A stretch of DNA of 64,000 bases from an uncultured cyanobacterium. Lineage in GTDB: Bacteria > Cyanobacteriota > Cyanobacteriia > Cyanobacteriales > CAWCAG01. Shown here piece after piece: positions 2,194 through 23,664 of this stretch. Below the pieces are notes generated by a model. That model was not told where the DNA came from, searched no databases, and saw only the letters and a program-made list of their open reading frames with translations. Location of the stretch: assembly GCA_963803805.1 (NCBI GenBank), contig CAWDOD010000002.1:896001-960000 (forward strand), in the 5' to 3' direction. Positions within the stretch are counted from its first letter, which is position 1, and each line of letters begins with the position of its first letter. Both the position numbers and the translations under genes were made by a program.

Positions 2194-2248
2194 TATTTAC
2201 TTATCTACTAAAAACAAGTTTTTTTTGCAAAAAGTACAGAAAACTTTT
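2194..2248 (-). promoter_or_regulatory. Repeated bipartite motif, copy 1 (upstream of the PPIase-T1SS operon)
   Basis: + strand TATTTACTTATC-N21-GCAAAAAGTACAGAAAACTTT, matching the copies at 19521 and 23606. Confidence 0.75.
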
Positions 2249-2313
2249 TCTGTAGGGAATTTAGGTGATTTTAACAATTTTTAAAATCCTGGTTTTAGAA
2301 ACTTGCTTGAGTG

Positions 2314-2355
2314 GGCGATCGCATTTTCTATTTTATTGATGAAGATGCGATCGCC
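2314..2355 (-). terminator. Hairpin built from two HIP1 sites, just after the RTX stop codon
   Basis: GGCGATCGCATTTTC...GAAGATGCGATCGCC inverted repeat. Confidence 0.45.
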
Positions 2356-2367
2356 TCTTAACTCAAC

Positions 2368-5300
2368 TTAGACGTTAGTGAAGCTTTCACTAGTTAGGGT
2401 GTCAGCTTGGAAATTTGTCAACGAGGCTAACAATTCACCTGTATTTACAAAACTGATAAATGCGTCCTTTTCTGAGGAACCACTTCCTTGACTAAAGGAA
2501 AGTTCTTGGAACTTCAAGCCTCCAGATAAACCGAAAATATCAGTACCAACTTGGAAGTCGAGGATAGTGTCCATACCTTGATTTCTAGCCATAATAAAGG
2601 TATCTTTGCCTTCTCCCCCTTCTAGGGTATCCTGACCGAAACCACCATTAATCAGGTCGTCTTCTTCTCCCCCGTAGAGGAAGTCATCACCAGATTGTCC
2701 TAGCAAGACATCATCATCCTCACCCCCATACAGAAAGTCGTTACCCGTGCCACCGTCTAGGTTATCACGTCCGTCTCCCCCATCAAGGATGTCGTCGCCG
2801 TCAGCACCGGAAAGTTCGTCGTGACCAGCATTTCCTTCCAAATTATCTGCACCAGAGCGACCAAGTAGAATATCGGCATCATCTCCTCCTTTGAGGATAT
2901 CATCACCTGCACCACCATCAAGGAAGTCCTTGCCTTTGTCACCAAACAACTCGTCGTTGCCTGCACCACCGAGTAGGATGTCTTTTCCGGAACCACCGTC
3001 AAGGATGTCGTTACCTATACCACCATCAAGGTTATCATAGTCATTACCTCCGTAGAGTTTGTCATCACCCGTGCCACCAATGAGGGTATCATCATCGTTG
3101 CCACCCTCAAGGGTATCATTGCCAGAACCACCATCAAGGTTGTCTTCACCACTACCACCGATGAGTTGATCATTCCCTGCACCACCGATGAGAATATCAT
3201 CCTCGTTGCCGCCATTTAGGGTATCATCCCCAGAGCCACCATCAAGGTTGTCTTCACCATTACCACCGATAAGTTGATCATTCCCTGCACCACCGTCAAG
3301 GTTGTCATCATTAGACCCCCCATCAAGGATGTCATTGCCTGCCCCACCGATGAGTTCATCCCGGCCTGTAGCCCCTTCAAGGAGGTCATTACCAGCACCA
3401 CCATCAAGGAAGTCATCACCATAACCACCATCAAGGAAGTCATCCCCAGCTTGACCGTAGAGGGTATCATCACCATCTTCACCTTTAAGTAGATCATTGC
3501 CACGACCACCATCTAGGGTATCATCTTCAGTTCCTCCGTAGAGAGAATCATCTCCGGCATCACCAAATAGTTGGTCATCATCATCGTTACCATAAAGGGT
3601 GTCATCTCCGTAGCCACCATCTAGCTCATCTTCTCCTTCCCCTCCAGAAAGGTCATCGTTGCCGTTGCCACCTTCGAGGTCATCATCCCCTTCAAAGCCT
3701 TGGAGGGTATCGTTGCCGTCACCCCCTTGAAGGGTATCGTTCCCATCACCACCATAGAGTAGGTCATTGTCATCTCCTCCACAAAGATGGTCGTCTCCTT
3801 CACCCCCTCTGAGTTCATCGTCTCCCTCTTGTCCCAGGAGGATGTCATCCCCTTGATCTCCAACGAGGATATCCTTGCCTTCGCCACCAGCGAGGGTGTC
3901 GTCCCCTCCTCTACCAAAAATCTCATCATTGCCACCAACACCAATCAGGAGATTATCTTGCCCATCACCTATAATTTTGTCGCTTTTCTCGGAACCAATA
4001 ACGTTCTCGATATCTCTGAGGATGTCATGATCTCCGTAACCATCGGTGGCAATTTGTTGGGCGAGATTAACATCAACGCTGCCGTTATCCCACTGGTAAC
4101 TAACAGTATCAATTCCTGCCCCTCCTTCAATGAGATCATTACCACCATGACCAGCGATGAAGTCGTCACCATCTAGGGTACGAATCCAGTTATCTTTGCC
4201 ATTCCCCATCATGACATCATCTTGATTGGAGGCTACGATGTCTTCAATGTTAACCAGGGTGTCGCTAGCATCCATTTCATCATAAACTTCACCAGGATCT
4301 AGGGCAAATCTTGGTTCAGGGTGGGGAACTTCAATATCACAGTCGTTGTCACAATATTCTTGGTCGTGGTATTCGTAGCTGTTGTCGTCATCAAGGTTGA
4401 TGCGGACTCCTACAGTTGAGGTGGCGAAGGTAACTTGGTCAACCCCTTCTCCACCGTCAATGAAGTCGCTGCCATCTCCTCCATCAAGGAAGTCGTCACC
4501 ATCGCCCCCATAAAGTTCGTCATCTCCTGCACCACCAATAAGGGAGTCATCTCCTTCTCCGGCATCAAGGATATCATCACCATTGCCACCATCAAGGGAG
4601 TCGTTACCTTCGCCCCCATAAAGTTCATCGTCCCCATCATCGCCGGCCATGGTATCGTTGCCTGCACCTCCTGAGAGAACATCATCTCCTGCACCTGCGG
4701 CAATATTGTCATCCCCTGCACCGCCATCAAGGTAGTCGCTACCGTCGCCACCGTTAATTTCGTCGTCGCCAGCGCCACCTTCTGCTACATCGTCTCCTGC
4801 CCCAGCATCAAGGATGTCGTTTCCTGAACCCCCTTCAAGGTAGTCATCACCAGTTCCTGCGTCGAGGTTATCGTTGCCAGCGCCACCATCAAGAATATCG
4901 TCGCCTTCACCAGCATCTAAGGTATCGTTACCATCGCCACCGAACAGTTCGTCATTTCCTTGGGCAGCATCAAGGTTATCATTGCCTGCGCCGCCGTAGA
5001 GGTAGTCATTTCCTTCTCTACCAAACAGTTGGTCATCGTCGTTACCGCCATCAAGGTAGTCGCTGCCGGTATCCCCATCGAGGTAGTCTTGACCATCTGA
5101 ACCAAGGAGGGTGTCGTTGCCAGCTTCACCAAAGATTTGGTCGTCTCCAGCGCCGCCGTCGAGGGTATCTTCACCTTCACGACCGTAAATTAAGTCAATA
5201 CCGTCGCCGCCATCAGCAAAGTCGTTGCCTGCGCCAGCGTCAATGAAATCTTCTCCGGCAGAACCAAAAAGGTTATCATGTCCGATTTCACCATAAATCT

Positions 5301-8300
5301 CGTCGTCACCAGCGCCACCGTCTATGGTATCATCACCAGCGCGACCGTAAATTAGGTCAGCATCATCACCGCCATCAACGTTATCATTGCCGATTCCTGC
5401 ATCGATATAGTCTTCACCACCGGAACCAAGAATGGTATCGTCATCTTCTTCGCCGTAGATTTCATCGTCACCAGCGCCACCGTCTATGGTATCATCACCA
5501 GCGCGACCGTAAATTAGGTCAGCATCATCACCGCCATCAACGTTATCATTGCCGATTCCTGCATCGATATAGTCTTCACCACCGGAACCAAGAATGGTAT
5601 CGTCATCTTCTTCGCCGTAGATTTCATCGTTACCAGCGCCACCGTCTATGGTGTCGTTGCCAGCGCGACCGTAAATTAGGTCAGCATCATCACCGCCATC
5701 AACGTTATCATTGCCGATTCCTGCATCGATATAGTCTTCACCACCGGAACCAAGAATGGTATCGTCATCTTCTTCGCCGTAGATTTCATCGTTACCAGCC
5801 CCGCCGTCTATGGTGTCGTTGCCAGCGCGACCGTAAATTAGGTCAGCATCATCACCGCCATCAACGTTATCATTGCCGATTCCTGCATCGATATAGTCTT
5901 CACCACCGGAACCAAGAATGGTATCGTCATCTTCTTCGCCGTAGATTTCATCGTTACCAGCCCCGCCGTCTATGGTGTCGTTGCCAGTACGACCATAAAT
6001 CAAGTCAGTGCCATCACCACCATTAGCAATGTCGTCGCCCGTACCAGCATCAATGTTATCATCGCCAAGCCCTCCATTAATTTCGTCATCGCCATCGTTA
6101 CCATAAAGTTTGTCATTTTCTGAACCACCATCTATAAAATCGTTACCAGCATTACCTTCAATGAAGTCTTCACCAGATTCTCCATAGATAGTGTCATCAT
6201 CATCTTGACCATAAATGGAGTCGTTTCCTGTCCCTCCCCAGATAGAGTCTTTTCCTGCGCCACCTTCTAGGATATCGTTGCCTGCATCACCATAAATTTC
6301 ATCGTTGCCAAAACCGCTATCTCCTTTAACCCAGTCATCGCCACCACCAGAGTGGATTTCATCATCTCCATCACCACCGCGAATAATATCTGCATCTCCA
6401 TTAACAGCATCGCCAACGAAGTCTCCCCAAATGGTGTCATTGCCATAGTTACCGAATAGCTTATCTTGTCCGCTACCTCCGATAACTTTGTCATCACCGC
6501 GTTCACCATAAAGCATATCGTCACCACCTTCGCCGGAAATGTAGTCATTTCCCATGCCTGCGGTGATGATATTGAGGTTGTTGTCTCCGACAATCGTGTC
6601 GCCCAAATCAGAACCAACTACATTCTCGAAATCGAAGATTTGATCATGGTCATGGTTAGCGAGGAAGTTATTATCTGCTTGGCTAAAGTCAAAGGGTAAC
6701 TTGCCTTGGAAGCCTTTAACAGTAAGATTGGCTTCTAAGCTGACGTGGACTGGACGCGCTGTATCGCTGTAGCTGAGGGTGTCAAGACCGAATCCAGCGT
6801 AGAGGTTATCCGTACCAGCACTACCGACAACTACATCATCTCCTCCTAATGCCCAAATGTAGTTGTTTTTATTGTTGCCAATAAGAATGTCATCAGTGAA
6901 ACCTTTAGTACCGTAATCTCCAAATTGAACTATGGGCTGGAAATTCCAATCTGTTCCCTTGATAGATTCTAGGTTTTCTAAGATATCAACAGTACCAAAG
7001 CCATCATAGGCGGTTCCAGAGGCGATTTCATAGTTAGGTTCTAGGTCAAAGAAGTATTCTTCAGGGTTTTCTGGACTGACTTCTTGATTAAATAGCAGGT
7101 TGCGATTGTGTTCAAAGAGGTTATTTTCATTAATGTTGACGATGACGGTGTTAGGGGAGAAGCTGTAGTCAACGGTGTCTCCTTGAGTTCCTCCATTTAT
7201 GTAGTCGTTGCCAAGTCCGCCGTCGAACCAATCAAATCCTCCATTACCAAACAGAGTGTCGTTGCCTGTCCCTCCAGCTAGAGTGTCGTCGTTAGCACCA
7301 CCACTCATGTAGTCGTTGCCAGAACCACCGGAGAGATAGTCGTTACCAGCGTCTCCATACATGGTGTCGTTGCCTTCTTGTCCGTAGAGAGTGTCTCCAT
7401 TGTCACCACCGTGTAAGGTGTCAGCGCCAATTCCACCGTATAAGGTGTCTGTGCCAGCGTCGCCCCACAGTTCATCGTTTCCTTCTTGTCCGTAAAGAGT
7501 ATCTCCGTCATCGCCACCGTGTAGTGTGTCTATGCCGAGTCCTCCTTCTAAGGTATCAATACCAGCGTCGCCCCACAGTTCATCGTTTCCTTCTTGTCCG
7601 TAAAGGGAGTCTCCATCGTCTCCACCATGTAGGATATCTTCGCCAAGTCCACCTTCTAGAGTATCAACACCAGCGTCACCCCAGAGTTCATCATTACCGT
7701 TGTTTCCATACAAGGTATCGTTTTCAGAACCACCATGAAGTTCGTCTTCTCCATCTCCGCCGTGTAGTTCGTCAATACCTTCATCACCCCAGAGTTGATC
7801 GTTGCCTTCTTGTCCGTAAAGGAAGTCTCCATCATCTCCGCCATGTAAGGTGTCTTCGCCGAGTCCACCTTCTAGAGTGTCAGTGCCAGCACCGCCTTCT
7901 AATGTGTCATCTCCTCTACGACCATACAAGTTATCATTACCAGAGCCTCCACGGAAAGTGTCATTGTAACTTCCTCCATACATTTCGTCGTCATAAGAAG
8001 AGCCTTCTATAATCTCAACGTTACCGACTGTATCTAATGTGCCGAAACCGTCTTCAATACGATAAACATCAGAGCCTGCATATTCTTCAGCACTTACTTT
8101 AATAGGGCTATTGCTGCTTGAGTAATCCGCAGTATCTTGTCCCTTTCCTCCATCTAGCAAGTCGTAACCTTCTCCACCAATTAAGGTATCGTTACCACCT
8201 TTGCCTCTGAGGACATCATTTCTTGCAAATCCCCCTATTCTGTCATTTCCAGAAGTACCTTCAATCCAATCATCATTTTGTGTACCTGCTACATTAGATT

Positions 8301-9909
8301 GATTTTGGATTTTGTCTTCTGAAAAATAGTATCCTGTCTTATTTAATTCATTAAAAGATTGAAGAAAATATTGCTGGGCTTCTTCTCCCCATGTAGGCAA
8401 ATAGCTATCTACAAATTTGTGTTCATCCAACCCATTTTGTAAAGTAGCAATTCCAGTATTGACTAAATTTGATAGTTTAGAGAATAAATTATTGTCACTT
8501 AACTGCAACTTAGTAACCGGATCATTATTATTGATAATATTTAAGCCATCTCCCAAATTTTGATAATATGTATCAGGTGAAACCATTGATAATCCTGCTG
8601 CTGTGTAAGAAGTAGGAGAACCAAAAGAAATAACTTTTGTTTGATTTTGATATTGAGAGCCTTCGATCAAAGCATCTTCAAGAAAAAAGTTTCCTTGAGA
8701 ATGTCCTATCAAAATCAAAGAATTTTGTGAATCATTATTTCCTAAAAATTGGGAGTCTATGATTTGATTGTATAAATCTAAACTAGGAGAAACTGGATCT
8801 GTAAACCAGTATTGTATAAGTGCTTCTTTTAAATCAAAACTATCGGGTAAAGCTTGAATGATAGAATTAATTTCACCCCCTAATTGTCCGGCGATAAAAT
8901 TAATTAAATCAGCAGTAAATTGATCGTCTTCTAAAAGACTAAAACTCGGATTTTGCCAAAACTGCCATACTATATTTGCAAAATCTCCTATTTGATCTAT
9001 CAAATCTATAAGTTCAATACTACCTAAAATTTTATCAAGTAAATAGCTACCTATAAATTCTAAAATCAATTCATCCAAATTTTCCAAAGAAGAAAGATTA
9101 TAAACAGGCTTTGAAATTAAAGAACCATCATCATTAGCAAAAAGGTTATTGTTAATCACAAAATTTTCTTCTGCTTTTGGCACAAAATCACCATAAAAGG
9201 ATAATGAAGTTGTGAATATACCATTAATAAGAACAACTTGGGTTTTGCTTGAATCCTTTAAAACTTTGTTCCAAACTTTCTCAAAATTAAAATCTAGCTC
9301 GTTATTATTTACTATTCCTGCTTGTTCAATATTAAATGTGCTGCTATGTACCTGGATGATTCCAGAATCGTTTTCAGATTGCAAAACCTCAACTTGAGAC
9401 TCTCTCAAATCAACACCTTGCACCACATTGGAAAAATATTCCCCCTCATCTCCCGGAGTATCCACCACATTCACTTGAGCATCAACATAATGCCCAAACT
9501 CCTCCAACAACACACCATTAATCGCCTCAACATCACCAGCAGACTCACGCAAGAAATCCTCAGCCAAATAAATAGTATTAGTCGCTGCTGCATAAGCCGC
9601 ATTCGCCCCACTCAACTCCGCACTACTGAGAATCTCGAAACTAGGAAAAGACTCAAACTCACCAGAAACAAACGACTCTTTTAACTGGCTATAATCATTC
9701 CCCTCCCCAAAAACAGACTCCATCTTGCTAACAAACTCAGCATCAGTCGCAAAACTCTGCAAACTCAAACTAAACTGTTCCAGAAAACTTTCAGCCACAT
9801 CCGTACTCTCAAAAAAGTCGCCAACAACTTCTAGCAAATCGTCAAAAGAATCCTTATTTGACCAATCTTCCAAACCAAAAACTTGAGACTCGGTATTAAG
9901 CAAATCCAT
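2368..9909 (-). CDS. Giant RTX/hemolysin-type Ca-binding repeat protein (2513 aa) with N-terminal EExGH domain and alpha/beta-hydrolase (lipase-like) domain; probable T1SS substrate
   Basis: Very many GGxGxDxLx nonapeptides; LLEEFGHYVD; LIGHSQGNF; C-terminal DTILDFQVGTD...ELLASL...SFTNV typical of cyanobacterial T1SS cargo; adjacent to HlyB. Confidence 0.9.
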   Translation of the reverse strand: MDLLNTESQVFGLEDWSNKDSFDDLLEVVGDFFESTDVAESFLEQFSLSLQSFATDAEFVSKMESVFGEGNDYSQLKESFVSGEFESFPSFEILSSAELSGANAAYAAATNTIYLAEDFLRESAGDVEAINGVLLEEFGHYVDAQVNVVDTPGDEGEYFSNVVQGVDLRESQVEVLQSENDSGIIQVHSSTFNIEQAGIVNNNELDFNFEKVWNKVLKDSSKTQVVLINGIFTTSLSFYGDFVPKAEENFVINNNLFANDDGSLISKPVYNLSSLENLDELILEFIGSYLLDKILGSIELIDLIDQIGDFANIVWQFWQNPSFSLLEDDQFTADLINFIAGQLGGEINSIIQALPDSFDLKEALIQYWFTDPVSPSLDLYNQIIDSQFLGNNDSQNSLILIGHSQGNFFLEDALIEGSQYQNQTKVISFGSPTSYTAAGLSMVSPDTYYQNLGDGLNIINNNDPVTKLQLSDNNLFSKLSNLVNTGIATLQNGLDEHKFVDSYLPTWGEEAQQYFLQSFNELNKTGYYFSEDKIQNQSNVAGTQNDDWIEGTSGNDRIGGFARNDVLRGKGGNDTLIGGEGYDLLDGGKGQDTADYSSSNSPIKVSAEEYAGSDVYRIEDGFGTLDTVGNVEIIEGSSYDDEMYGGSYNDTFRGGSGNDNLYGRRGDDTLEGGAGTDTLEGGLGEDTLHGGDDGDFLYGQEGNDQLWGDEGIDELHGGDGEDELHGGSENDTLYGNNGNDELWGDAGVDTLEGGLGEDILHGGDDGDSLYGQEGNDELWGDAGIDTLEGGLGIDTLHGGDDGDTLYGQEGNDELWGDAGTDTLYGGIGADTLHGGDNGDTLYGQEGNDTMYGDAGNDYLSGGSGNDYMSGGANDDTLAGGTGNDTLFGNGGFDWFDGGLGNDYINGGTQGDTVDYSFSPNTVIVNINENNLFEHNRNLLFNQEVSPENPEEYFFDLEPNYEIASGTAYDGFGTVDILENLESIKGTDWNFQPIVQFGDYGTKGFTDDILIGNNKNNYIWALGGDDVVVGSAGTDNLYAGFGLDTLSYSDTARPVHVSLEANLTVKGFQGKLPFDFSQADNNFLANHDHDQIFDFENVVGSDLGDTIVGDNNLNIITAGMGNDYISGEGGDDMLYGERGDDKVIGGSGQDKLFGNYGNDTIWGDFVGDAVNGDADIIRGGDGDDEIHSGGGDDWVKGDSGFGNDEIYGDAGNDILEGGAGKDSIWGGTGNDSIYGQDDDDTIYGESGEDFIEGNAGNDFIDGGSENDKLYGNDGDDEINGGLGDDNIDAGTGDDIANGGDGTDLIYGRTGNDTIDGGAGNDEIYGEEDDDTILGSGGEDYIDAGIGNDNVDGGDDADLIYGRAGNDTIDGGAGNDEIYGEEDDDTILGSGGEDYIDAGIGNDNVDGGDDADLIYGRAGNDTIDGGAGNDEIYGEEDDDTILGSGGEDYIDAGIGNDNVDGGDDADLIYGRAGDDTIDGGAGDDEIYGEEDDDTILGSGGEDYIDAGIGNDNVDGGDDADLIYGRAGDDTIDGGAGDDEIYGEIGHDNLFGSAGEDFIDAGAGNDFADGGDGIDLIYGREGEDTLDGGAGDDQIFGEAGNDTLLGSDGQDYLDGDTGSDYLDGGNDDDQLFGREGNDYLYGGAGNDNLDAAQGNDELFGGDGNDTLDAGEGDDILDGGAGNDNLDAGTGDDYLEGGSGNDILDAGAGDDVAEGGAGDDEINGGDGSDYLDGGAGDDNIAAGAGDDVLSGGAGNDTMAGDDGDDELYGGEGNDSLDGGNGDDILDAGEGDDSLIGGAGDDELYGGDGDDFLDGGDGSDFIDGGEGVDQVTFATSTVGVRINLDDDNSYEYHDQEYCDNDCDIEVPHPEPRFALDPGEVYDEMDASDTLVNIEDIVASNQDDVMMGNGKDNWIRTLDGDDFIAGHGGNDLIEGGAGIDTVSYQWDNGSVDVNLAQQIATDGYGDHDILRDIENVIGSEKSDKIIGDGQDNLLIGVGGNDEIFGRGGDDTLAGGEGKDILVGDQGDDILLGQEGDDELRGGEGDDHLCGGDDNDLLYGGDGNDTLQGGDGNDTLQGFEGDDDLEGGNGNDDLSGGEGEDELDGGYGDDTLYGNDDDDQLFGDAGDDSLYGGTEDDTLDGGRGNDLLKGEDGDDTLYGQAGDDFLDGGYGDDFLDGGAGNDLLEGATGRDELIGGAGNDILDGGSNDDNLDGGAGNDQLIGGNGEDNLDGGSGDDTLNGGNEDDILIGGAGNDQLIGGSGEDNLDGGSGNDTLEGGNDDDTLIGGTGDDKLYGGNDYDNLDGGIGNDILDGGSGKDILLGGAGNDELFGDKGKDFLDGGAGDDILKGGDDADILLGRSGADNLEGNAGHDELSGADGDDILDGGDGRDNLDGGTGNDFLYGGEDDDVLLGQSGDDFLYGGEEDDLINGGFGQDTLEGGEGKDTFIMARNQGMDTILDFQVGTDIFGLSGGLKFQELSFSQGSGSSEKDAFISFVNTGELLASLTNFQADTLTSESFTNV
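5302..5986 (-). repeat. 162-bp (54-aa) near-identical tandem repeats, about 4.2 copies, inside the RTX gene
   Basis: AGC(G/C)CC(A/G)CCGTCTATGGT recurs at 5311, 5473, 5635, 5797 and 5959. Confidence 0.9.
7350..7900 (-). repeat. 108-bp (36-aa) degenerate tandem repeats inside the RTX gene
   Basis: CCAGCGTCGCCCCACAGTTCATCGTTTCC at 7454 and 7562; unit DTLEGGLGxDTLHGGDDGDxLYGQEGNDELWGDAG. Confidence 0.75.
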
Positions 9910-10300
9910 AAATCAATTCCCCTGGTTAGAATAGAAAAAATAAACAAACATCGCCAAAGTGAAACCCTGCCATAAACTCCAGAAATCAGAGATACGGTTA
10001 GCCACTGTGAAAAAACTGACTTACTCAAAAAGAGCGATTCAGAACTCTCACTAAAGTCTTCTCAGGGAAAAACACTCGATATTATGCAGCGAGACAATTT
10101 TTATTACAAAACTTCACAAAACCCATCAGGGACACTGAAATAAAACTGTAATTGGTTTGAAATTCTCTGTTAAGGAGGATGATACTATTTTTCAAAAATA
10201 GCTTCAGCCTTGCTCAAGTAATTATCACTATTTTCGTCAACAACAAAGCTCTTTTCTCTTCAACTAAAATACGGTTGCAAAAACTTCCCACCAGTCTCCC

Positions 10301-13300: not shown

Positions 13301-15454
13301 TTGAGCTTCGCTAGAGACAGCACCACCAACAAAAATTTCACCACTGCTAATGATATTGATATTGCCACTACTAGCATAGCCAGGAGACTCAATTCCTCCT
13401 GTAATGTTTATGCTACCTTGGTTTGTTTTGAGGGTAAGGTTTGCACCTCTAGCACCTTCTTGTCTTGTACCATTTGCTAGTATTCTTGTTGCTCCTGCAC
13501 TAATACCTGGAGTGCCAATAACAATATCATTTTTAGCTTCTAAGTTAATTTCAGCTACCCTATTCCCTGTAAAACTACCACTGCTGAGATTGCGAGCAAT
13601 ATTAATTGTGTCACCACTAGTGATAGTAATATTGCCACCGTTTATGTCTCCCTGGGAGTCGATAATACCGCCATTGATATTGACGTTACCCCCAGCATTA
13701 ATGACGTTACCCCCAGCATTAATGTTGATATTGCCACCATTACAATTATTACAAAAGTTTGTATAAATTGACTCTAAATTTGCTTCACTTCCTGCCTGAA
13801 AATTTAGAGAACCACCGGCGGTATATATATCATTGGTTATATTTATTTTTTCCCCTGCTAAGAAGGTGATTGTTTCACCAAATTCTTGATTAGTAAAAAC
13901 CAAATCTCCTGGGAGTTGCGAATTAATATCCTGGGTTGCTTGTAATGTAATGTTACCGGTTAAAGCAGTTAGTGCTGTTTTGCTAATAAAAAAATTTACC
14001 ATGCCACCATCAGAGGAACTGATCTGGCCATCTAAAACTTCACCATCATGGCTGCCTCTGTCTGTGATAATAATATTTCTCGGATCAAGTAAAACACTAC
14101 CATTTTCACCAACAACTGCCCCAACATCTACATCTCCCCAAAAAGCCAAGTTTTTCTTCCCTGATACTTCCACAAAACCACCGTTACCAAACTCACTACC
14201 ACCACGGGCATTAATGCTGCCATAAAACCCTGTGGCTTCATCTGCCCAAACAATTACACGGCCACCATTTCCTGTTAACCAGCTATCTGCATTAATCACC
14301 CCATCACTACTAACAAAAGTGCGAGAAGCAGTTGGTATTTTTCCCCTACCTTGATAATCTCCACCTACAAAAACATTGCCACCACCATTAGTACCAGAAG
14401 CATTAATTTCAACTCCCATTAAGAAAGTGCGATCGCCAAAAATTCCTACATCACCACCAACCCCTCCAGAATGAGAAACATCAATAGTACCCGTTGCGAT
14501 CGCACCCCCTCCTTGAGTAGTTATTTTAATACCAGAATCAGTCAACTGAATTTCCCCATTATCATCAAAATTCAATTCTGTTTCTACAGTTACAGCCGCA
14601 GTTAATAAAGCAGGTAAATCAAGAGGATTAATCGGTAAAACTTGCCCCTGATTATCTCTAGGAGGTTCAATTTCTAAACTTAATATTTGCCCCGGCTGAC
14701 TAATCTTAACTCGACTTGTTCCAGGAATAGCAGAAATAAGAATATTACCTCCTGATGCAGTCAACTTACCAGTATTAATAACACTCCCACTTAACAAAGT
14801 TAAATTCTGCCCTTCTCCTACGACTAAATCCCCAGCATTAATTATTACTCCGTTGTTAGATAAATCAAAAGCAAAACTATTAGGATCACCAATTAAATTT
14901 TGATAATCATTTGTACCAAAAGCATCAAACCAATTACCATCACGGAAACCAATACCTGTAGAAGTTGTAGCGGTGAAATCCCCCCCTACATTTAAACTTG
15001 CCCCTACACCAAAGACTATCCCTGCCGGATTCATCAAATAGAGGTTAGCATTACTGCCTGTAATTTGAATTAAACCATTAATAATCGAAGGATCACCCCC
15101 AACCACTCTACCTAAAATATTTTGTATACCAGGTTGAGAGAGGAAATTAGCAACTTGATTAGCATCCAAACCAAACTGTTGAAAACTGTGAAAAAGGTTT
15201 GTACTATCACCAGAAAGAGAACCACCATTAATGTTGAATTGATTACCGTCAATATTAATAATCGTACCAGTGCCATCATTAGCTGGAGTAATGGTTTGCC
15301 CTAGAACAGCTTGCCCGTTGATAATCAACCCAAGAGTACAAAAAGCCAACCCGAAACTTCCTGAAAAGTTGCCAATTTTCTGCTGGAAATTACTCGATAA
15401 AGCTAATTTACTTGTCTCCATATTTCTAACTTTCACTGGTAGATACCTTTCCAA
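10301..15454 (-). CDS. Filamentous haemagglutinin N-terminal (TPS) domain protein with C-terminal CHAT peptidase domain
   Basis: [37 protein letters not shown] motifs [33 protein letters not shown]; true start may be the Met of METSK. Confidence 0.9.
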
Positions 15455-15471
15455 AAATAAACTATGAATTT

Positions 15472-16551
15472 CTAGCGAAACTCCTCATCAAGTTGCTGCA
15501 ATTGCACCTTCAAACTTGCTACTTTTTCTAAATCACCCAATACTTCGTAACCTTCTTTAGCCGCCGTTAAATTTTGATGTGCCTTTTCTGAATCATCAAG
15601 GGAAATATAAACTTGCCCTAAACTATCTTGAATAGCTGCTTTGGCTTCAAGATTATCTGCATTAACTAACTCTAAAGCTTGCTTGTAATATACTTCTGCT
15701 TGGGGAACCAATAACTGTTCCAAGAAATATAAATCACCAAGCTGTTGATAAAGTGCTGCCGTTTGCACCTTGTTGATGACAGACTCTTCCAACAGTAACA
15801 AAGCTTCACTCTGCAAACCATATTCTAAATAAACATTAGCGATCGCGATGCCCTTACCCACATCATCCAATGATCCTTGCTGAATTTCGGCTTCTGCTGC
15901 ACGAAGTTGCTGCACCTCTGCTTCATCAAGAAGTTTAATTAAAGGGGACAGGTAAAACTCCCCCGTATCTGCTATCACAGTAATCAAATACTCCTTACCA
16001 GATTGTAGGGATTGTTCTCCTGCATAAACTACTTGAGTCTGACTAACTTCAGTTTGCCAAACAACCTGCCCACCCTCCTCCACGGTAACTGTGTAACTAT
16101 TCGCCCCCGGCACTTCTTGCCAGCGTAAACTTGGTTGAGCATTGAGTAATTTAGTATACCGAGGACTAATCAAATAAGGGGTTGGTTGTTGCTCCCAAGG
16201 AACTACTTTATCACCACGTCTAGGACAACGCTTCAACCCAGAAGTGCATTTATCCTCTGCTGCCACCTCCCCACAGTTATTAGCTTGACTAGTTTGAATA
16301 GATTGCAAAGTTAAATCAGCACATTGCACCACCACCTTGCTATTATTGAGGGAGATTAACTCATCCCCTGGATAAAGAAAAGTACCAATAGTCGCATTGA
16401 AAGTTTCTCTCGACTCCCTTTTGAGATGCACCTGACCAGCTAAGGAAATAATTTGCCCATTAGCAACAGAGTTAGAAACAGCATCTAAAGGCATTGCCAA
16501 GGTAGTAGTTAAGCCCAAACCAAGTAGATAAATAGTACCTTGAAACTTCAC
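15472..16551 (-). CDS. Exported tetratricopeptide-repeat protein with DUF928/Ig-like middle region
   Basis: Signal-peptide-like N-terminus; [20 protein letters not shown]-terminal TPRs ([20 protein letters not shown]). Confidence 0.7.
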
Positions 16552-16704: not shown

Positions 16705-19464
16705 TTAAACCAAGAGAGAATCTGGAGCAACAGTGTTGATTTCCAAGTTAGTAACTCGAAAACGTTCACCATCTCCAGAAGAGAAAGAAACAGCATCAAA
16801 ACTCCTACCCAAACTGCCACCTAAGTCAGCCGCACCCATATAAAACTGCTCTTCTGTAAGATCATCAATCATGGCTGTTTGCACCTTAGTAAATGTGTTA
16901 CCCTGCTGTGACCAAAAATCTATCAGTACATCGGCTTGAGCATCAGCATTATCATTTGTAGCCTTGACAGCAAAGGAAACTCCTGTAGTCCCTAGGAGAG
17001 GATCTTTGAGGTCAAAAAACAGCATTTCATTAGCATTAATATCCTTCCCACCGCTAGTTGCTCCCTCATCACCCCCAAAACCTTCATCTTTACCGATACC
17101 ATTGCGATCTATACCAAATTCTAAATCAAAGCCGTCTGATTCCAGGGTAATCTTTTGAGAAATAAGTACTTTCTCATTATTATCAGGATCAAAAGCTTCC
17201 ATCTCCCCACTCTCAAAGTCAAAGCTAAATTGATTAGGGCTTCCTGCACCTTGCTTAAACTTAAAACCCTGGTAGTCAATCAAATCTTCCAGATCACCAG
17301 GAGAATTAGCAAGGTTGCTTTCCGGAATCTCAAAACCATAATCACGATTCTGATTAATTATCCCACCAGAATCATCTTTTTGATCAGTTAGTTGACGGCG
17401 TGCTTTTGAGCCATTACCATTATCAGCACCATTAAGTTGCCCACGATGTAATTCAGATTCCAATTCGATAGTACCACCATTGATAAGCTCAACTCTGGGG
17501 GTAGAAAATTCCAGATGAGAGTTAGCAACATCATCGTTAATGATTGTACCCATGCCTTGAGAATCGGCAAAGCTGACATTCCGACTATTTACTTGCAGGT
17601 TAGATAGGTTAACAAAGAATGTTTCATCTAGTTCTACTTTCAGATCCCCATTGATAGTAACTGGAATAGTTATAGTTTCACCGTTGACATCAACTGGAAT
17701 AGTTGGCGCTATTTGAATGTTACCAAAGTTGCTAACATAGTCAGCATCACCAATAGTTGCTGTGCCATCAACCGTCTCAAAATCGAGAAAAATATCCGTA
17801 TCAACAGGCTGATCCAGGGTTAAAGTGAAGTTGGCAATGGTACTGCTGCTATCCCCTTCCACGACGGTTACATCGTTAATAGATATTGTCGCATCATCAT
17901 CATTAATAATCTCCCCCACACCTTGAGAGTCAACAATAATTGCTCCTCCGGTTGGGTTGGATAAGTTGGCAAAGAAGCTTTCATTCAACTCCACAATATT
18001 ATCAGTTGTGATTGGCACTAATACCTCTTGACTAGTAACTCCTGGTGCAAAGTTTACCGGCCCAAATACGCTATTATAGTCCTGACCTGCAATAGCAGTG
18101 TTATCTGCTGTGGCAAAGTCCACAGTGTGAGTGATGTTACTTACCCGATCCATTGAGACAATAAATTTAGCAAAGTTGGAACCCCCTGTCCCCTCAATAA
18201 CCGGAGCATTGCTAATGGAAAATTCAGGGTTGTCATCATTAAGAATCCTACCAATTCCTTGAGTATCAGCAAAGGTTACAACACGCCCACTTGCTTGAAT
18301 TTCAAGTAGGTTGACGAAAAAATTCTCATCTATTTCTACCTTGCTGTCACCATTGATAGCAACTGAAATAGCCTCTGTTGTTTTAACACTACCAGACTTG
18401 CTAACATAGTCAGCATCAGCAACAGTTGCTGTTCCGTCAGCAGTCTCAAACTTAACAAAAACATCAGTATCAATAGGATTATCAACGCTTAAATTAAAGT
18501 TAGCTAAACTGTTTCCGCTATTCCCTTCCACAACAGTTACATCGTTAATAGATATTGTCGCATCATCATCATTAACAATGATTGCACGACCTTGAGGATC
18601 ACCAATAGTTGCTCCTCCAGTTGGGTTAAATAGATTAAGGTAAAAATCTTCAGTCAACTCAACTATATTATCGGTTACTATTGGAAGCGATACATTTTGA
18701 CTGGTAACTCCTGGTAAAAAGGTTAATGTCCCTGCTCCTCCTCCATAGTCTTCCCCAGCAATAGCAGTACCATTTGCTGTGGCAAAGCTTACAGTGTGGG
18801 TGAGTTCACTTGCCCGATTCATTGAAATAGTGAAATTAGCAAAGTTGGAACCTCCTGTTCCCTCAACAACAACAACATCGTTGATGAAAAATTGAGGTGC
18901 ATCTTGTCGTGTCAATTCTAACTGAAACGCACCCATTTTCTGATTTATAGGGCCGCTAGGAATACGATTACCGCTATTAATCTCGGTCGCATCGTACTTT
19001 CCATTCCCTTGGGCTGTAACACCGATGAAAAATGTATTAGTGCTTGGGGCTTGAAACAACAGTGTAGGATCTGCTGAGATGATTCCACTTTCAGGATCAA
19101 TACCATCGTCAGCAACTTTTAACTCTTTACCATTTGCGTTAAAAACGCGAATCATACTATCCAAATTGGAACGCTGCTTGAGACCAAAGTTATTTGGATT
19201 AAGAATTGCTCCCTTGCCATCATTATCTCGCGCATCAACATCAATGAGGAGAAATTCCCCTTGTTTTAGCTTAACCCCAAAAAGATCCACATCACTACCA
19301 TCTCTGGCAACATTGTTACCAATCATCTCTGTTGAATGAAACGGAGTCTGTAAGTAGTCTATGGGGCTAGTTAATTCAACTTTAACTCCAATGTCTAGCT
19401 CATTTCTTTTAACGATGTCTGCTAAACCGATTTTATCAGCTTCATTAATCCTTACTCTTGCCAT
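16705..19464 (-). CDS. Calx-beta repeat surface/adhesin protein with N-terminal PPC-like domain
   Basis: Four Calx-beta units (ISINDVTVVEG...FETADGTATVADADY...I.NDD); DVDLFGVKLKQG and DSMIRVFNANG PPC-like motifs. Confidence 0.85.
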   Translation of the reverse strand: MARVRINEADKIGLADIVKRNELDIGVKVELTSPIDYLQTPFHSTEMIGNNVARDGSDVDLFGVKLKQGEFLLIDVDARDNDGKGAILNPNNFGLKQRSNLDSMIRVFNANGKELKVADDGIDPESGIISADPTLLFQAPSTNTFFIGVTAQGNGKYDATEINSGNRIPSGPINQKMGAFQLELTRQDAPQFFINDVVVVEGTGGSNFANFTISMNRASELTHTVSFATANGTAIAGEDYGGGAGTLTFLPGVTSQNVSLPIVTDNIVELTEDFYLNLFNPTGGATIGDPQGRAIIVNDDDATISINDVTVVEGNSGNSLANFNLSVDNPIDTDVFVKFETADGTATVADADYVSKSGSVKTTEAISVAINGDSKVEIDENFFVNLLEIQASGRVVTFADTQGIGRILNDDNPEFSISNAPVIEGTGGSNFAKFIVSMDRVSNITHTVDFATADNTAIAGQDYNSVFGPVNFAPGVTSQEVLVPITTDNIVELNESFFANLSNPTGGAIIVDSQGVGEIINDDDATISINDVTVVEGDSSSTIANFTLTLDQPVDTDIFLDFETVDGTATIGDADYVSNFGNIQIAPTIPVDVNGETITIPVTINGDLKVELDETFFVNLSNLQVNSRNVSFADSQGMGTIINDDVANSHLEFSTPRVELINGGTIELESELHRGQLNGADNGNGSKARRQLTDQKDDSGGIINQNRDYGFEIPESNLANSPGDLEDLIDYQGFKFKQGAGSPNQFSFDFESGEMEAFDPDNNEKVLISQKITLESDGFDLEFGIDRNGIGKDEGFGGDEGATSGGKDINANEMLFFDLKDPLLGTTGVSFAVKATNDNADAQADVLIDFWSQQGNTFTKVQTAMIDDLTEEQFYMGAADLGGSLGRSFDAVSFSSGDGERFRVTNLEINTVAPDSLLV

Positions 19465-19520: not shown

Positions 19521-19580
19521 CTTGCTATTTACTTATCTGCTAGAAAAAAACTTTTTTTGCAAAAAGCCCAGAGAAATTTT
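19521..19580 (-). promoter_or_regulatory. Repeated bipartite motif, copy 2 (upstream of the Calx-beta gene)
   Basis: CTTGCTATTTACTTATC-N21-GCAAAAAGCCCAGAGAAATTT. Confidence 0.8.
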
Positions 19581-19646: not shown

Positions 19647-21458
19647 TTAATTACTATGGTTTAGTCTTTGCCAAGCCTTTTCAATACATTCTTCTTCTTC
19701 AGGAACACTTGATTTGGAGTATTGCCAAGTTTTTCGCCATGCTTTCATCGCTTCTGCATTCCTATCTTTCGCCTCTAAAGCCTGTGCCAATAAACAATAA
19801 GCATGGGGGCTTTTTTCTTCTAAAGCTATTGCTTTCTCCAAATCAACCAAAGCCTCATCTACACGCCCCTTTTGCCAACGTACCCAGGCACGATTTTTTA
19901 AACAGGAAGTTTTAACACTATCGTATTTAGTTTGGTTTAAACATTGCTCAACCGCCTTAAGAGCAGCTTCTGGATTGTTCTTTTTTATGTACAAACTGGC
20001 TACATCTGCAAAAGCTTCCGGTGATCCTCGCAAAGCTGCTTTTTGATAAGCTTCGACAGTGCAGTCTAAATCATCTAAAACATCATCGCAAAGTACCGCT
20101 AAATTGTAGTGAGGGGTAGCATAATTCAAGTCTAGTAAAGTTGCTAAACCATAGAAACCCTGTGCTAAAAAGTATTGTCCTTGATTATCTTTTTCTAAGC
20201 CAATATTATTCATTTGCCTAGCTAACTTAGAACCAAAAAACAAATAGCTAACAAATAAAGCTAAACTAGTTAATGTTACGAATTTGGTTATTCTTTTACC
20301 TATACCCAACCAAACTCTCTCTCTAGATTCTATTGCTGAATCAGACTGACTTGCATTACCCCATTCTTGCCAACTAGGAGGAGTAATAGCTGGATGCTGA
20401 CAAATAACTGGTAGCCAACTAGCCCCAGGGAAGTAATGTTCCAACCCTTTCAGTTGCTCCCTGGCTTGCCTCACTGCAACGTAAAAAGGTTCTCCATCAG
20501 CAAAGGCTCGGAAGAAGTACTGCAAAAAAGCAGGGGCGACAGGATCAGGAACCGGTTCCCGCATGACAATAATTGGTGGTAAAGGAACTTTGGCTTTTGC
20601 TAACTGCCGTGGTAAACCTAAACCATCACAGGAGTTGAAAATAGCTAGCTGCAAACCTTTGCTCACAGAGATATGCAATGCTTCTTGCAACTCAGCAATG
20701 GTTATACTATTATGGTCAGGAAGTTGATTGATAAAGAGGTTCCCTGTGGTGGCATTGGCATTGCTAGAACTATGACCTGCAAAAAATAAAAAATCCCAAC
20801 CTTGTTCCCAAAGTTGGGCTGTCAATTCATCTCTTTCTGGTTCAAATAATAGCTTTAGTTCTACTCCTGGTAGTTTCTTGAGTAACTGCAAATCCTCCTG
20901 AAGATTGATACCGTTGCTATTACCAAAAATAGCGAGGATTTTTATTTTTGCCCCCAATTTTTTGTTAATTAAAGGAGGTGGTGCAGGATATTCTGGTGTG
21001 CTGAGGGCTATTTCTGCATAGCGATAGTCTTCTTTAACTAGTTTCCATAATGACCAAGGTAATCGCCACACTTGCTCATCATCACTTTCAATGATTATTT
21101 GTATAGCTTGGTAGGGGGCTAACTGAGTCCTCAGTTGCTGCTCAATTTCGCGAAAGCCCTCGCTACCCAGCCAGTTGTTAATTTGTGTAGCTAAGTTTTC
21201 TCCTATAGTTTGGAACTCAACTTCTGAAACCTGGGTGATGCCCTCTGGTTTGATTTCAATGTCAGCCCTAGTTGTATTTTGATACAAAGCCAGATAAAGC
21301 AATTGCCAACGCCCATACAATTCAGGTAAATGGCGGGCTGGAGGTAAACTTCCTCTCAACTGCATGGTGAGATTCCCTGGTTTTCCTAACCTTGCTGTTA
21401 CCTGGGGAAAACCATCATCAAAGTTTCCTGATTCTAGATTTAAAACTACTAAATTCAT
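19647..21458 (-). CDS. CHAT (caspase/HetF-associated) protease with transmembrane helix and C-terminal TPR domain
   Basis: Catalytic-dyad motifs FFAGHSSS and IFNSCDGLG; LPWSLW; hydrophobic FVTLTSLALFVSYLFFG; Cys-rich TPRs at the C-terminus. Confidence 0.9.
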   Translation of the reverse strand: MNLVVLNLESGNFDDGFPQVTARLGKPGNLTMQLRGSLPPARHLPELYGRWQLLYLALYQNTTRADIEIKPEGITQVSEVEFQTIGENLATQINNWLGSEGFREIEQQLRTQLAPYQAIQIIIESDDEQVWRLPWSLWKLVKEDYRYAEIALSTPEYPAPPPLINKKLGAKIKILAIFGNSNGINLQEDLQLLKKLPGVELKLLFEPERDELTAQLWEQGWDFLFFAGHSSSNANATTGNLFINQLPDHNSITIAELQEALHISVSKGLQLAIFNSCDGLGLPRQLAKAKVPLPPIIVMREPVPDPVAPAFLQYFFRAFADGEPFYVAVRQAREQLKGLEHYFPGASWLPVICQHPAITPPSWQEWGNASQSDSAIESRERVWLGIGKRITKFVTLTSLALFVSYLFFGSKLARQMNNIGLEKDNQGQYFLAQGFYGLATLLDLNYATPHYNLAVLCDDVLDDLDCTVEAYQKAALRGSPEAFADVASLYIKKNNPEAALKAVEQCLNQTKYDSVKTSCLKNRAWVRWQKGRVDEALVDLEKAIALEEKSPHAYCLLAQALEAKDRNAEAMKAWRKTWQYSKSSVPEEEECIEKAWQRLNHSN

Positions 21459-21624: not shown

Positions 21625-22752
21625 TTAACCAAGTTCTTGAAAAGAAAAAGATTCACAGACACAAACATCATCAAGAGCTACCTGTATTTTAAATATAGTA
21701 ACAGGACTCACATAAAAAAGTCGAAGTTGAATATACAAATCTTGACCTCTAGAAACAACTTCTTGTAGTATTTCTTCGGTTTCAGATAACAGAATGAGTT
21801 TCATTTGTGGATATAAGTAGCGATCGCCCGAAGCGGGATGAAGCTGTACAATAATACTAATTCTTTGTTCAGATTCATGGGTTACTCCTACTAACAAAGT
21901 AGCTGCGCGATCATCTAGTTGAACCCCAAGATCAATTAGTTTAGCCCGCTTAACATCAGCTTTGGGTAAAAATTGAGGATTAATTTGTGCTGCTTTTCTG
22001 AAAGTACTATTAAGGGGAGAAGGAGCTTTAATAGAGCCTCGAAATTGCCTACTTGGCTGCGGAGTATTAAGTCTTGCTTCTAAGGTTTGCCAACCATTAC
22101 TGAAAATGTTCTTAAACCAATTTCCTACATTAACTACAGTACTTGTGGGAGGAGATTTCAAGTTCTTTGGCTTAGGTGTAGGAGTCAAAATTGCTTCTAC
22201 ATCTTGCCACTCACTATTAAAACTATTAACCAACCACTGGTTAAGGCTAACGGCAGATTTACCAAGACTTTGCAGGTGTCTCAGGAGAGAATCTAGGGGT
22301 TTTAATTGATTAATAACTAGTGTCCCTTCTTCAGCAGTGGGAGAAAAACCTAGCAACAAGGCTCTTTTAGCTTCCTCATCAATTCCTACTACTACATAAC
22401 CCAGACGAGCTTCTCGTGCTTCTAAAGGCACTGGACAACTGTTAGGTAAGTTATCTAAAGTAATCCTCACAGGACGACATTCTAGTTTCCCCAGCCCTTT
22501 AACTGCTAAATCTGCTACATCTTCGCACATATGCAGTACCGGATTCCAACTATCACCCTTTTCTAATTCAGTATCTATTTGCAAAAGTTGGAGATAATTG
22601 TTTACTACCCAAACTGCCAAGGTATTCAAGTAAATCCGTTCTCCCTGAGAAGCATGAGGTTGGGCAGCAGCAAAGCGTTTTGCGAAAGCGAAACCTGCAC
22701 TATCAATGGGCAGAGGTAAGTATTCTTGGTGAGCATCAATGGAACTATTCAT
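21625..22752 (-). CDS. DUF1822 family protein (putative anti-sigma factor)
   Basis: YLNTLAVWVVNNYL, ADL...GKLECRPV, GYVVVGID, RAKLIDLG, QLHP; probable start MNSSID at 22752, 23 bp after the sigma stop. Confidence 0.85.
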   Translation of the reverse strand: MNSSIDAHQEYLPLPIDSAGFAFAKRFAAAQPHASQGERIYLNTLAVWVVNNYLQLLQIDTELEKGDSWNPVLHMCEDVADLAVKGLGKLECRPVRITLDNLPNSCPVPLEAREARLGYVVVGIDEEAKRALLLGFSPTAEEGTLVINQLKPLDSLLRHLQSLGKSAVSLNQWLVNSFNSEWQDVEAILTPTPKPKNLKSPPTSTVVNVGNWFKNIFSNGWQTLEARLNTPQPSRQFRGSIKAPSPLNSTFRKAAQINPQFLPKADVKRAKLIDLGVQLDDRAATLLVGVTHESEQRISIIVQLHPASGDRYLYPQMKLILLSETEEILQEVVSRGQDLYIQLRLFYVSPVTIFKIQVALDDVCVCESFSFQELG

Positions 22753-22775
22753 AACTTCACTTCCTAATAAATCTT

Positions 22776-23396
22776 TCAAATATATGCTTGAGACTTTGCA
22801 AATTGGCGTAAACGAGGACGGCATTGACGTTTATAAAAACTGTAGAGAGTTGACAAAGGGCAATTTAGTTCTGCGGCTAATTCTTCCCAACCTGTTTCTG
22901 GAGGTAGGCGGCGCAGAATCACCTTTTGGCAAGTAATATCTGGGCGTTTTTTCATGTGAGTACTGGTTAAGTCTCCATCAGGATCACTTCCTACCCAATT
23001 CCTAGTTTCTTCAAGAATAGGAGGTATTTCTTGGGGAGCTTCTGTAAAAGGTTCTGGATCATTGCTTTTTAATTGTTGGTAAAGTTGTCTATCTCTTTGC
23101 TTCTCGGTACGAAAATCTAGAAGTCGATATTTGAGATAGTTATTAAGCCAAGTAATTACAGAACTTCTGGCAGGATTATAAGGTTGACAACTGTTTCCTT
23201 CACAAAGGTTACGAACAAGATATAGCCAAGTTTGCTGTAAAGCATCCTCATAATAAAGAGCATTTTCTCGCCACAATCTCCCAGAATTGACGATGACTCT
23301 AATTAAGTGGTTGAGATATCTTTTTCGTTCCCAACTATCAGCAGGATATTGGCAGCTTTGGGCGACAAGTTGCTTGATTTGCTCTTCTTGTACCAT
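22776..23396 (-). CDS. Sigma-70/ECF-like RNA polymerase sigma factor (cyanobacterial type linked to DUF1822)
   Basis: YEDALQQTWLYLVRNL and SVITWLNNYLKYRLLD (region 2-like); WEELAAELNCPLSTLYSFYKRQC HTH (region 4-like); start taken at MVQEEQ (ORF track extends to 23570). Confidence 0.8.
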   Translation of the reverse strand: MVQEEQIKQLVAQSCQYPADSWERKRYLNHLIRVIVNSGRLWRENALYYEDALQQTWLYLVRNLCEGNSCQPYNPARSSVITWLNNYLKYRLLDFRTEKQRDRQLYQQLKSNDPEPFTEAPQEIPPILEETRNWVGSDPDGDLTSTHMKKRPDITCQKVILRRLPPETGWEELAAELNCPLSTLYSFYKRQCRPRLRQFAKSQAYI

Positions 23397-23605
23397 TTTG
23401 GTGCAACACCTGAGTTGGGCTTTGCCTACAGGACTATTTCTCAAGGCTGTCCCTAATCTTCTGGAGTTGCTACCTTTTAAAGCAGAGTTTAGTTGATCAA
23501 GAAGGTTCTCCCCAGGAGAATAGCCATTTTCTCTTAGGTTACGAAAACTTACCCAGCTAGTAACATTCATGATTAATTTTGCTCAGAATCTAGATATGTG
23601 TTTGC

Positions 23606-23664
23606 CTTGCTATTTACTTATCTGCGAGAAAGAAACTTTTTTTGCAAAAACCTCAGAGAAATTT
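23606..23664 (-). promoter_or_regulatory. Repeated bipartite motif, copy 3 (upstream of the sigma-DUF1822-CHAT operon)
   Basis: CTTGCTATTTACTTATC-N21-GCAAAAACCTCAGAGAAATTT. Confidence 0.8.

Follow-up and report, generated by a model that had tools for sequence, protein, structure and literature searches.

Results

The locus and its promoter-like element

This study concerns a 64,000-nucleotide (nt) stretch of cyanobacterial DNA (contig C2:896001-960000 of genome G000, which comprises 5.3 Mb in 11 contigs at 40% G+C), here called the window, and within it a 57-nt promoter-like block that occurs three times. One copy (P3) lies upstream of an operon whose first gene encodes a 264-amino-acid (aa) protein resembling a sigma factor, followed by genes for a DUF1822 protein and a CHAT-TPR protease. 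The other copies precede a Calx-beta repeat gene (P2) and the first open reading frame (ORF) of an exporter operon (P1). All genes concerned are on the minus strand. The three sites and the genes of the sigma operon are as follows.

P3, 23606-23664, minus strand: promoter-like, with TGCAAAAAAA (-35-like) at 23646-23637, GATAAG (-10-like) at 23622-23617 and TAAATA at 23616-23611; upstream of the sigma-like gene
P2, 19521-19580, minus strand: promoter-like, with TGCAAAAAAA at 19561-19552 and GATAAG at 19537-19532; upstream of the Calx-beta gene
P1, 2194-2248, minus strand: promoter-like, with TGCAAAAAAA at 2229-2220 and GATAAG at 2205-2200; precedes the exporter operon's first ORF
22776-23570, minus strand: divergent sigma-like factor, 264 aa, with resemblance to sigma region 2 at residues ~57-165 and to region 4 at residues ~178-264
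21625-22824, minus strand: DUF1822 protein, 399 aa (DUF1822 E 8e-67), overlapping the sigma gene by 49 nt; candidate anti-sigma factor
19647-21458, minus strand: CHAT (caspase-like) protease, 603 aa (CHAT E 3.6e-14), with TPR repeats at the C-terminus; third gene of the sigma operon

The pattern TTTTTGCAAAAAAA-N13-AGATAAGTAAATA is found on the minus strand of the window at 2194-2233, 19526-19565 and 23611-23650 with 0 mismatches each, where the initial annotation of this DNA had placed it, and no further window match exists at ≤3 mismatches; 100 shuffles produced none. Single boxes alone are not significant, the significance residing in the box pair at its fixed distance. As had also been described, GC and GATAAG are separated by exactly 21 nt in all three copies (the spacing being fixed in the pattern), and every copy is intergenic and oriented like the gene downstream. 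The minus-strand ATG of that gene follows after 41 nt (P3), 62 nt (P2) or 177 nt (P1).

A fuzzy scan of both strands of G000, allowing up to 5 substitutions and a spacer of 11-15, gave nine matches: the three window sites with 0 substitutions and six unrelated sequences with 5 each, and none with 1-4. Since only three copies, all co-oriented, are present in a 5.3-Mb genome, the motif is not a dispersed repeat, least of all a high-copy one indifferent to gene orientation. The likeness among P1-P3 is restricted to the 57-nt block (pairwise 48/57, 45/57 and 52/57 identical positions), and the 60-nt flanks on either side agree at just 16-24/60 positions. The block is thus neither a dispersed repeat nor a piece of a longer duplicated segment. 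The initial annotation had further contrasted conserved boxes with a variable spacer. The boxes are indeed conserved; the spacer does not vary freely in the window, as P2 and P3 have 11/13 spacer bases in common, and it is the P1 spacer that differs from these two while both boxes and their spacing are kept.

None of P1-P3 was listed by a sigma-70 consensus scan, and no Rfam family matched within window positions 1-26000. Sigma-54 promoters are expected to show a -24/-12 distance; a sigma-54 reading of the CTG...TTGCA portion was rejected by inspection, the distance from GG or CTG to GC being 6-9 nt.

Conservation of the element upstream of orthologous sigma genes

Related loci were taken from a collection of species-representative genomes as the best 80 of 518 relatives, the sense-upstream region being 400 nt. 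Among these 80 loci, 21 carry the strict core TGC-N21-GATAA on the sense strand ahead of the sigma gene and none (0/80) carries it antisense; from the background of 0.033 per kb over all loci, about one occurrence would be expected. The consensus of the orthologous sites reads tTtTGCgAAAAa ... CTGATAAsTAaATA. A two-box matrix derived from no sites other than these 21 foreign ones was run across both strands of the complete G000 sequence. Its best matches were the three window sites (28.5 for P3, 28.5 for P2 and 26.0 for P1), with a background of ≤19.4; rank 4 (20.2) is the upstream region of another sigma/DUF1822 paralog. Nothing from the window had gone into the matrix, which makes this recovery of precisely the three window sites the key result.

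The same matrix reached a best score of ≥18 sense-upstream in 37 of the 80 loci, antisense in 2/80 and in 0/228 downstream control windows, and it did so in 16/59 loci outside the training set. Matches of ≥20 over all loci numbered 44, as against 0 in a mononucleotide shuffle. In all 43 foreign loci scoring ≥13 the boxes are spaced identically to those of the window sites (with ±1 permitted at a small penalty), so that across orthologues in dozens of genomes two boxes stand at a rigid distance around a free, unrelated spacer. Box sequences vary by clade: the -35-like box reads GCGAAAA, GCATAAT or GCGTAAT (GCAAAAA in the window sites), and the -10-like box GATAAC, GATAAG, GATAAA, GATGAC or GATATC.

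The palindrome TTTTTGCAAAAA in the window copies might suggest the site of a dimeric repressor. Orthologues read TGCGAAAAA or TGCATAATT; the palindromic look of the -35-like box is not kept, which argues against such a site, and this reading was rejected. A fourth core match (TGC-N21-GATAA, window 48692-48720, minus strand) is flanked by convergent genes and followed by no ORF; it is not at the top of the matrix scan and was taken as chance.

Two or more matches of ≥20 within the 6-kb flanks were found at 6/80 loci. In Coleofasciculus (locus L068) a copy precedes the gene of a 292-aa PPIase (peptidyl-prolyl isomerase) whose N-terminus, MTTVLQIG, is that of the first ORF after P1. Further copies precede DUF6812 genes (L013 and L017), an AraC/PAS regulator (L019) and a DUF4135 gene (L050), and in Symploca and Caldora two tandem copies ~490 nt apart stand upstream of the sigma gene. 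At locus L103 (G033:C76:8251-11910) the sigma gene, 38% identical, has its own motif copy at 1363 on the plus strand, and three tandem copies at 350-nt intervals (positions 358, 708 and 1058, minus strand) are divergent from it, with no convincing ORF after them. A loose pattern in IUPAC code gave 28 matches in this genome against 14 for a reversed control, 4 of them within ~1 kb of the sigma gene; the pattern was too weak to define a regulon.

The 264-aa protein resembles sigma factors in profile and fold

A search of a large protein collection returned 590 homologues of the 264-aa protein at E ≤0.001, all without precomputed Pfam domains, and NCBI labels several of them 'sigma-70 family RNA polymerase sigma factor'. 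The strongest single test of sigma identity is the profile-profile comparison: hhalign against four canonical sigma factors of G000 aligned 158 columns in register, from region 2 to the helix-turn-helix of region 4, with a probability of 84.7% and an E-value of 6.7e-6.

The AlphaFold model of the protein has a mean pLDDT (predicted local distance difference test) of 81.4, and its N-terminal 57 residues form an extension modelled with low confidence; relatives conserve the MNVTSW with which it begins. Sigma factors account for most of the 50 Foldseek rows, all at E ≥0.12 and none at E ≤0.001. When the two halves were compared separately with VIA-align, residues 57-165 matched region 2 of SigW (Z 7.5) and of SigC (Z 7.2; root-mean-square deviation (rmsd) 1.9 over 83 aa), with a further match at Z 6.7, and residues 178-264 matched region 4 at Z 6.7, 6.2 and 6.2, with SigR region 4 at Z 6.2 (rmsd 2.1, 64/65 aa). 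Regions 2 and 4 thus occur in the order that marks the sigma-70 superfamily, without regions 1.2 or 3. On profile and fold we assign the protein to this superfamily as a very divergent member with two domains, 'ECF-like' (extracytoplasmic function) in architecture only. Of the name 'ECF sigma factor' given in the initial annotation the sigma-like part holds. ECF stands for resemblance and not for an established membership, because the Pfam and NCBIfam sigma models miss the protein; its putative boxes are also unlike the usual ECF boxes.

The DUF1822 protein as a candidate partner

The DUF1822 protein contains no strongly hydrophobic segment (the top 19-residue Kyte-Doolittle mean is 1.36) and is soluble. 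Complex prediction with sigma residues 58-264, the DUF1822 protein and custom alignments gave a score of 0.81 (runs 0.81, 0.84 and 0.81), the best of 3 controls scoring 0.00. The runs had ≥86% of contacts in common and a partner pLDDT of ≥68. The mark used for this score is reached by 116/157 solved complexes and by 2/215 mismatched pairs, counts that apply only roughly to custom alignments. In the predicted complex DUF1822 residues 33-185 contact both region 2 (77-119) and region 4 (182-264) of the sigma-like factor. This predicted geometry is that of classical anti-sigma factors, and the model supports binding without demonstrating it.

Modelled alone (pLDDT 77.9), the DUF1822 protein consists of an N-terminal alpha+beta domain and a C-terminal immunoglobulin (Ig)-like sandwich, and the model is not TPR-like, contrary to the description in the literature. 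The best fold matches of the N-terminal domain are nucleases of the PD-(D/E)xK type (I-Ssp6803I at Z 9.2, Hjc at Z 7.6 and 6.7, D212 at Z 6.7 and NhoI at Z 6.5). D105, E115 and R117 are invariant in 34 sequences.

Genes downstream of the three sites

The remaining genes between P2 and the edge of the window are listed below.

16705-19464, minus strand: Calx-beta repeat protein, 919 aa; absent at this position in related operons
15472-16551, minus strand: TPR-containing protein, 359 aa; 44% identical to the fourth gene of orthologous operons
10301-15454, minus strand: exoprotein, 1717 aa, bearing a TPS (two-partner secretion) domain at its N-terminus and a CHAT domain at its C-terminus; relatives also have TPS genes at this position
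2368-9909, minus strand: RTX-repeat protein, 2513 aa, after a 391-nt gap from the TPS-CHAT gene
1279-2017, minus strand: PPIC-type PPIase gene, split into ORFs of 94 aa and 136 aa
2-1201, minus strand: start of an ABC exporter, 987 aa, with cNMP-binding, C39-like, ABC-membrane and ABC ATPase domains

By their domain matches these genes, together with the sigma operon, are what the initial annotation had taken them for, that is, a sigma/DUF1822/CHAT operon, a Calx-beta gene and a PPIase gene with a HlyB/HlyD-type exporter. In the CHAT-TPR protein, residues 1-106 ahead of the CHAT match have no domain assignment. Relatives possess a conserved operon comprising the genes for the sigma-like factor, DUF1822, CHAT-TPR, a 360-aa TPR protein and a TPS exoprotein, and the neighbour of the sigma gene is DUF1822 in 34/34 sampled relatives. 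Since the CHAT gene is directly followed by the 360-aa TPR gene in relatives, the Calx-beta gene and P2 constitute an insertion in the window operon.

Beyond the window the exporter operon continues with genes for HlyD (499 aa), a DUF4915 protein, an FG-GAP/cadherin protein of 1871 aa and a cadherin/Big_9/RTX protein of 951 aa, and it ends at a convergent D-Ala-D-Ala ligase gene. The domain set is that of a type I secretion system (T1SS) of the HlyB/HlyD type (ABC_membrane 1.4e-56, ABC_tran 5.9e-32, Peptidase_C39 1.9e-9, HlyD_3 6.5e-21), and two proteins with RTX repeats, those of 951 aa and 2513 aa, count as RTX-type substrates encoded near the exporter. From their arrangement the genes appear to form three transcription units: sigma-DUF1822-CHAT, Calx-beta/TPS-CHAT and T1SS-adhesin. 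In a sister genome (G001) the PPIase gene that follows P1 is uninterrupted, as it is in Coleofasciculus, where it specifies the 292-aa protein; its split in the window may stem from a frameshift, a stop or an error of assembly.

Paralogous modules in the host genome

Four sigma-like genes are present in G000, each followed by a DUF1822 gene. The three paralogs lie at C9:47026-47658, C6:217966-218604 and C7:187226-187810 (loci L002-L004 and L123-L125). The distant ones on C6 and C7 (24-25% identity) have related upstream boxes, TTGC[AG]TAAAA and AGAGAA, with one extra spacer base and with GAGAA in place of GATAA in the -10-like box. On contig C7 four variant copies occur within 20 kb in the right orientation, ~40-100 nt upstream of ORFs, at positions including C7:197591 (before a 367-aa protein), C7:207580 (a glycosyltransferase / M50-like / HlyD operon) and C7:207469 (a DUF4114-subtilase). 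Genes for a CHAT-CHASE2 protein, a DUF928 protein and a ShlB-type transporter are found in or near the C7 module.

The window, too, holds a variant pair of this kind: TGCATAAT ... CTGAGAAG, whose spacer is longer by one base, stands at 10059-10088 (minus strand), ~150 nt upstream of the RTX gene at 2368-9909. It is of the type found upstream of the C6 and C7 paralogs and not of the P1-P3 type, and the RTX gene may answer to another sigma paralog. A canonical sigma-70-family gene, distinct from the gene of the 264-aa protein, is situated at window 29929-30915 on the minus strand (Sigma70_r2 E 4e-23), ~7 kb from the cluster.

Discussion

A proposed autoregulated promoter and its regulon

We consider it likely that the 57-nt element is a promoter read by the 264-aa sigma-like factor, which would thereby regulate itself positively from P3 and induce P2 and P1 at the same time. 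The element would be composed of an A/T-rich upstream tract, the -35-like TGCAAAAA, a T-rich spacer of fixed length, the -10-like (C)AGATAAG and the start region TAAATAG. With the 264-aa factor bound, RNA polymerase would initiate a few bases past GATAAG at each of the three sites. From P3 it would transcribe the factor's own operon (sigma, DUF1822 and CHAT-TPR protease), creating a positive feedback, from P2 the genes for the Calx-beta, TPR and TPS-CHAT exoproteins, and from P1 the PPIase gene and the type I secretion operon with its two giant cadherin/RTX proteins. The output would be a programme of secretion and adhesion. The comparisons show a motif unique to three sites, with invariant spacing upstream of orthologous sigma genes, and a protein belonging to the sigma-70 superfamily by profile and fold; from these we infer that the 264-aa factor reads the motif. 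The notion of a cognate promoter put forward in the initial annotation has gained support in this way, both from the foreign-site matrix and from the spacing conserved upstream of orthologues.

Several observations weigh against this reading. The 264-aa protein matches no Pfam model at E ≤10 except for an irrelevant one at 0.08 and no NCBIfam model at E ≤1, and Sigma70_r2 (PF04542), which finds 11 other genes of G000, misses all four sigma-like paralogs. Against PDB sequences a profile of 30 sequences yielded no more than marginal hits (SigK at E 0.9 and RpoE at E 1.4), and every fold match remains at Z <8, middling values in a range that the tool itself calls common. On the side of the promoter, 43 of the 80 orthologous loci lack a match of ≥18 and 37 lack one of ≥13; the signal is not universal, and many orthologues therefore use something that the matrix does not see. 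The closest paralog in G000 itself (C9, 53% identical) has no box within ~900 nt upstream, where a gene on the opposite strand abuts. P2 and P3 agree at 52/57 positions including the spacer, which is more than a sigma factor needs, and recent duplication therefore accounts for part of their likeness. In favour of the reading, the predicted recognition helix of region 4 varies with the -35 class: it reads NFY[KQ]R[QE]C where the -35-like box is GCGAAA and SFYRRQC where it is GCATAA or GCGTAA, the window protein having SFYKRQC; this covariation, at the level of clades and uncorrected for relatedness, is no more than suggestive. A corresponding covariation between region 2 and the -10-like box was looked for and was not consistent.

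As to how the factor might be controlled, the chances are about even that the DUF1822 protein sequesters it by clamping regions 2 and 4, as the complex model predicts. That the CHAT-TPR protease releases the factor on a signal is speculative and seems to us rather doubtful; it follows a proposal made in general terms by Kaur et al. 2021 (PMC8195603).

Could the element be read by a different factor?

Reading of the element by another factor, be it one of the three other sigma/DUF1822 paralogs, a canonical sigma factor or an activator together with the housekeeping sigma factor, appears unlikely to us. It draws support from G001, a genome of the same genus that is 98% complete. G001 retains the exporter operon (80-91% identical) and one motif copy (28.5, 55/57 identical to P1), yet its best homologues of the window sigma-like factor are only 24-25% identical, a point that also belongs with those raised above, and it has no DNA match to the sigma operon. 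Of the TPS-CHAT, TPR and Calx-beta genes only fragments of 81-98% identity exist there, on another contig, and the RTX gene is elsewhere. This pattern, seen at G001 C9:17556-19051 and C7:1214689-1214726, can be read as a co-loss of regulator and targets, which fits a promoter served by the 264-aa factor, or as a promoter that has no need of the window sigma, which does not. Identity at the motif site is 91% over 148 nt versus 89% in adjacent coding DNA; as it is no higher than in the coding DNA, selection on the G001 copy cannot be judged, and the copy may simply not have decayed yet. An origin of this copy by deletion between P1 and P3 was rejected, as it shares the P1 upstream flank out to window 2333 and not the P3 flank.

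The existence in G000 of three more sigma-like paralogs with related boxes likewise leaves room for another reader, as does the canonical sigma-70 gene at 29929-30915, ~7 kb off, the link between protein and site being a comparative one. However, the motif travels with the orthologous sigma gene in distant cyanobacteria, where it lies directly sense-upstream, and the distant paralogs own variants of their own, with GAGAA rather than GATAA and one extra spacer base. Another reader is further disfavoured by the failure of P1-P3 in the sigma-70 consensus scan and by the palindromic look of the -35-like box not being conserved.

Very unlikely, in our view, is a recent local duplication of a short segment, carried for instance with the Calx-beta insertion and devoid of a shared regulatory function. 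The near-identity of P2 and P3 down to the spacer would be accounted for in this way, and the Calx-beta gene with P2 is indeed an insertion relative to the orthologous operons, but the flanks are unrelated right to the edge of the 57-nt block, P1 keeps boxes and spacing around a different spacer, every copy is correctly oriented at promoter distance from an ORF start, and the same boxes and spacing recur around unrelated spacers upstream of orthologues in dozens of genomes. Least credible of all is that the block acts as RNA, as a shared 5′ leader or small RNA element, since most of it would lie upstream of any start set by the -10-like box, two boxes at a rigid distance around a free spacer are the signature of DNA recognition, and Rfam gave no match in window 1-26000, even though a start immediately after GATAAG would bring the conserved TAAATAG(C) tail into the transcript and the leaders would be 40-175 nt long.

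Relation to known systems

Preferring a promoter read by the 264-aa factor, we can compare the system with autoregulated ECF (group 4) sigma factors that have a co-transcribed anti-sigma factor, such as E. coli sigmaE/RseA and B. subtilis SigW/RsiW; structures 1or7 and 5wuq are among the fold matches of the 264-aa protein. In common with these pairs, the window protein has two domains corresponding to regions 2 and 4, its gene is the first in the operon, the partner is predicted to sit between regions 2 and 4, and a putative two-box promoter precedes its own operon and what would be a small nearby regulon of exported proteins. Unlike them, the window protein stays below every Pfam and NCBIfam sigma model. 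The boxes differ as well: many ECF groups have an AAC-containing -35 and a CGT-containing -10, whereas the window type is TGCrwAAA + GAtAAs. In place of a known anti-sigma domain DUF1822 presents a soluble alpha+beta nuclease-like fold with an Ig-like domain, and where membrane proteases usually act in ECF/anti-sigma systems, a cytoplasmic caspase-like protease is encoded here.

A triad of EACC2-caspase, ECF sigma and DUF1822 has been predicted computationally as a signalling or conflict system (Kaur et al. 2021, PMC8195603). As far as that paper was covered, the window agrees with it in that the gene of a sigma-like factor adjoins those of DUF1822 and of a CHAT/caspase whose C-terminus is variable (TPR in this case), with the same order in relatives. 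It differs in that the DUF1822 model is not TPR-like and in that a specific promoter and three target units are proposed here, the covered part of the paper naming neither promoter nor targets. Sigma genes of the actinobacterial group ECF54 have subtilases and a TPR-bearing CHAT protein encoded in their vicinity (Casas-Pastor et al., NAR 2021, PMC7826278). The genomic linkage of an ECF-type sigma to a CHAT-TPR protein and secreted proteases is alike in both cases; ECF54 belongs to another phylum and is a canonical ECF detected by standard models, and DUF1822 occurs neither in the main text of that paper nor in the part of its supplement covered. No description of a promoter or of targets of the sigma/DUF1822/CHAT triad was found in the literature searched, the supplements of which were covered only in part. 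The gene triad is already published as a prediction; the promoter and the target list are what is added here.

Tentatively, and with less confidence than in the clamping by DUF1822, one may envisage a family of divergent cyanobacterial sigma factors unseen by standard models, each held by a DUF1822 protein as an anti-sigma factor of nuclease-like fold, released by a CHAT protease and served by a private promoter of the form TGCrwAAA-fixed spacer-GAkAAs. Box variants and a one-base shift of the spacer would then insulate local regulons from one another, and in the window one such factor would turn on a T1SS, giant adhesins and a TPS-CHAT protease. The sigma / DUF1822 / caspase-like module is widespread in cyanobacteria, with 518 relatives in the collection and four modules in G000, and a defined promoter with a short target list makes it directly testable. 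The targets suggest that the output of the module is a change of cell surface and secretome, not cell death. The rigid, paralog-specific box pairs are also candidate orthogonal expression parts for use in cyanobacteria.

On the other side of P3, a gene for an 804-aa eCIS_core (DUF4157) protein (window 23992-26406, plus strand) is oriented divergently from it, the two having a common intergenic region of 420 nt.

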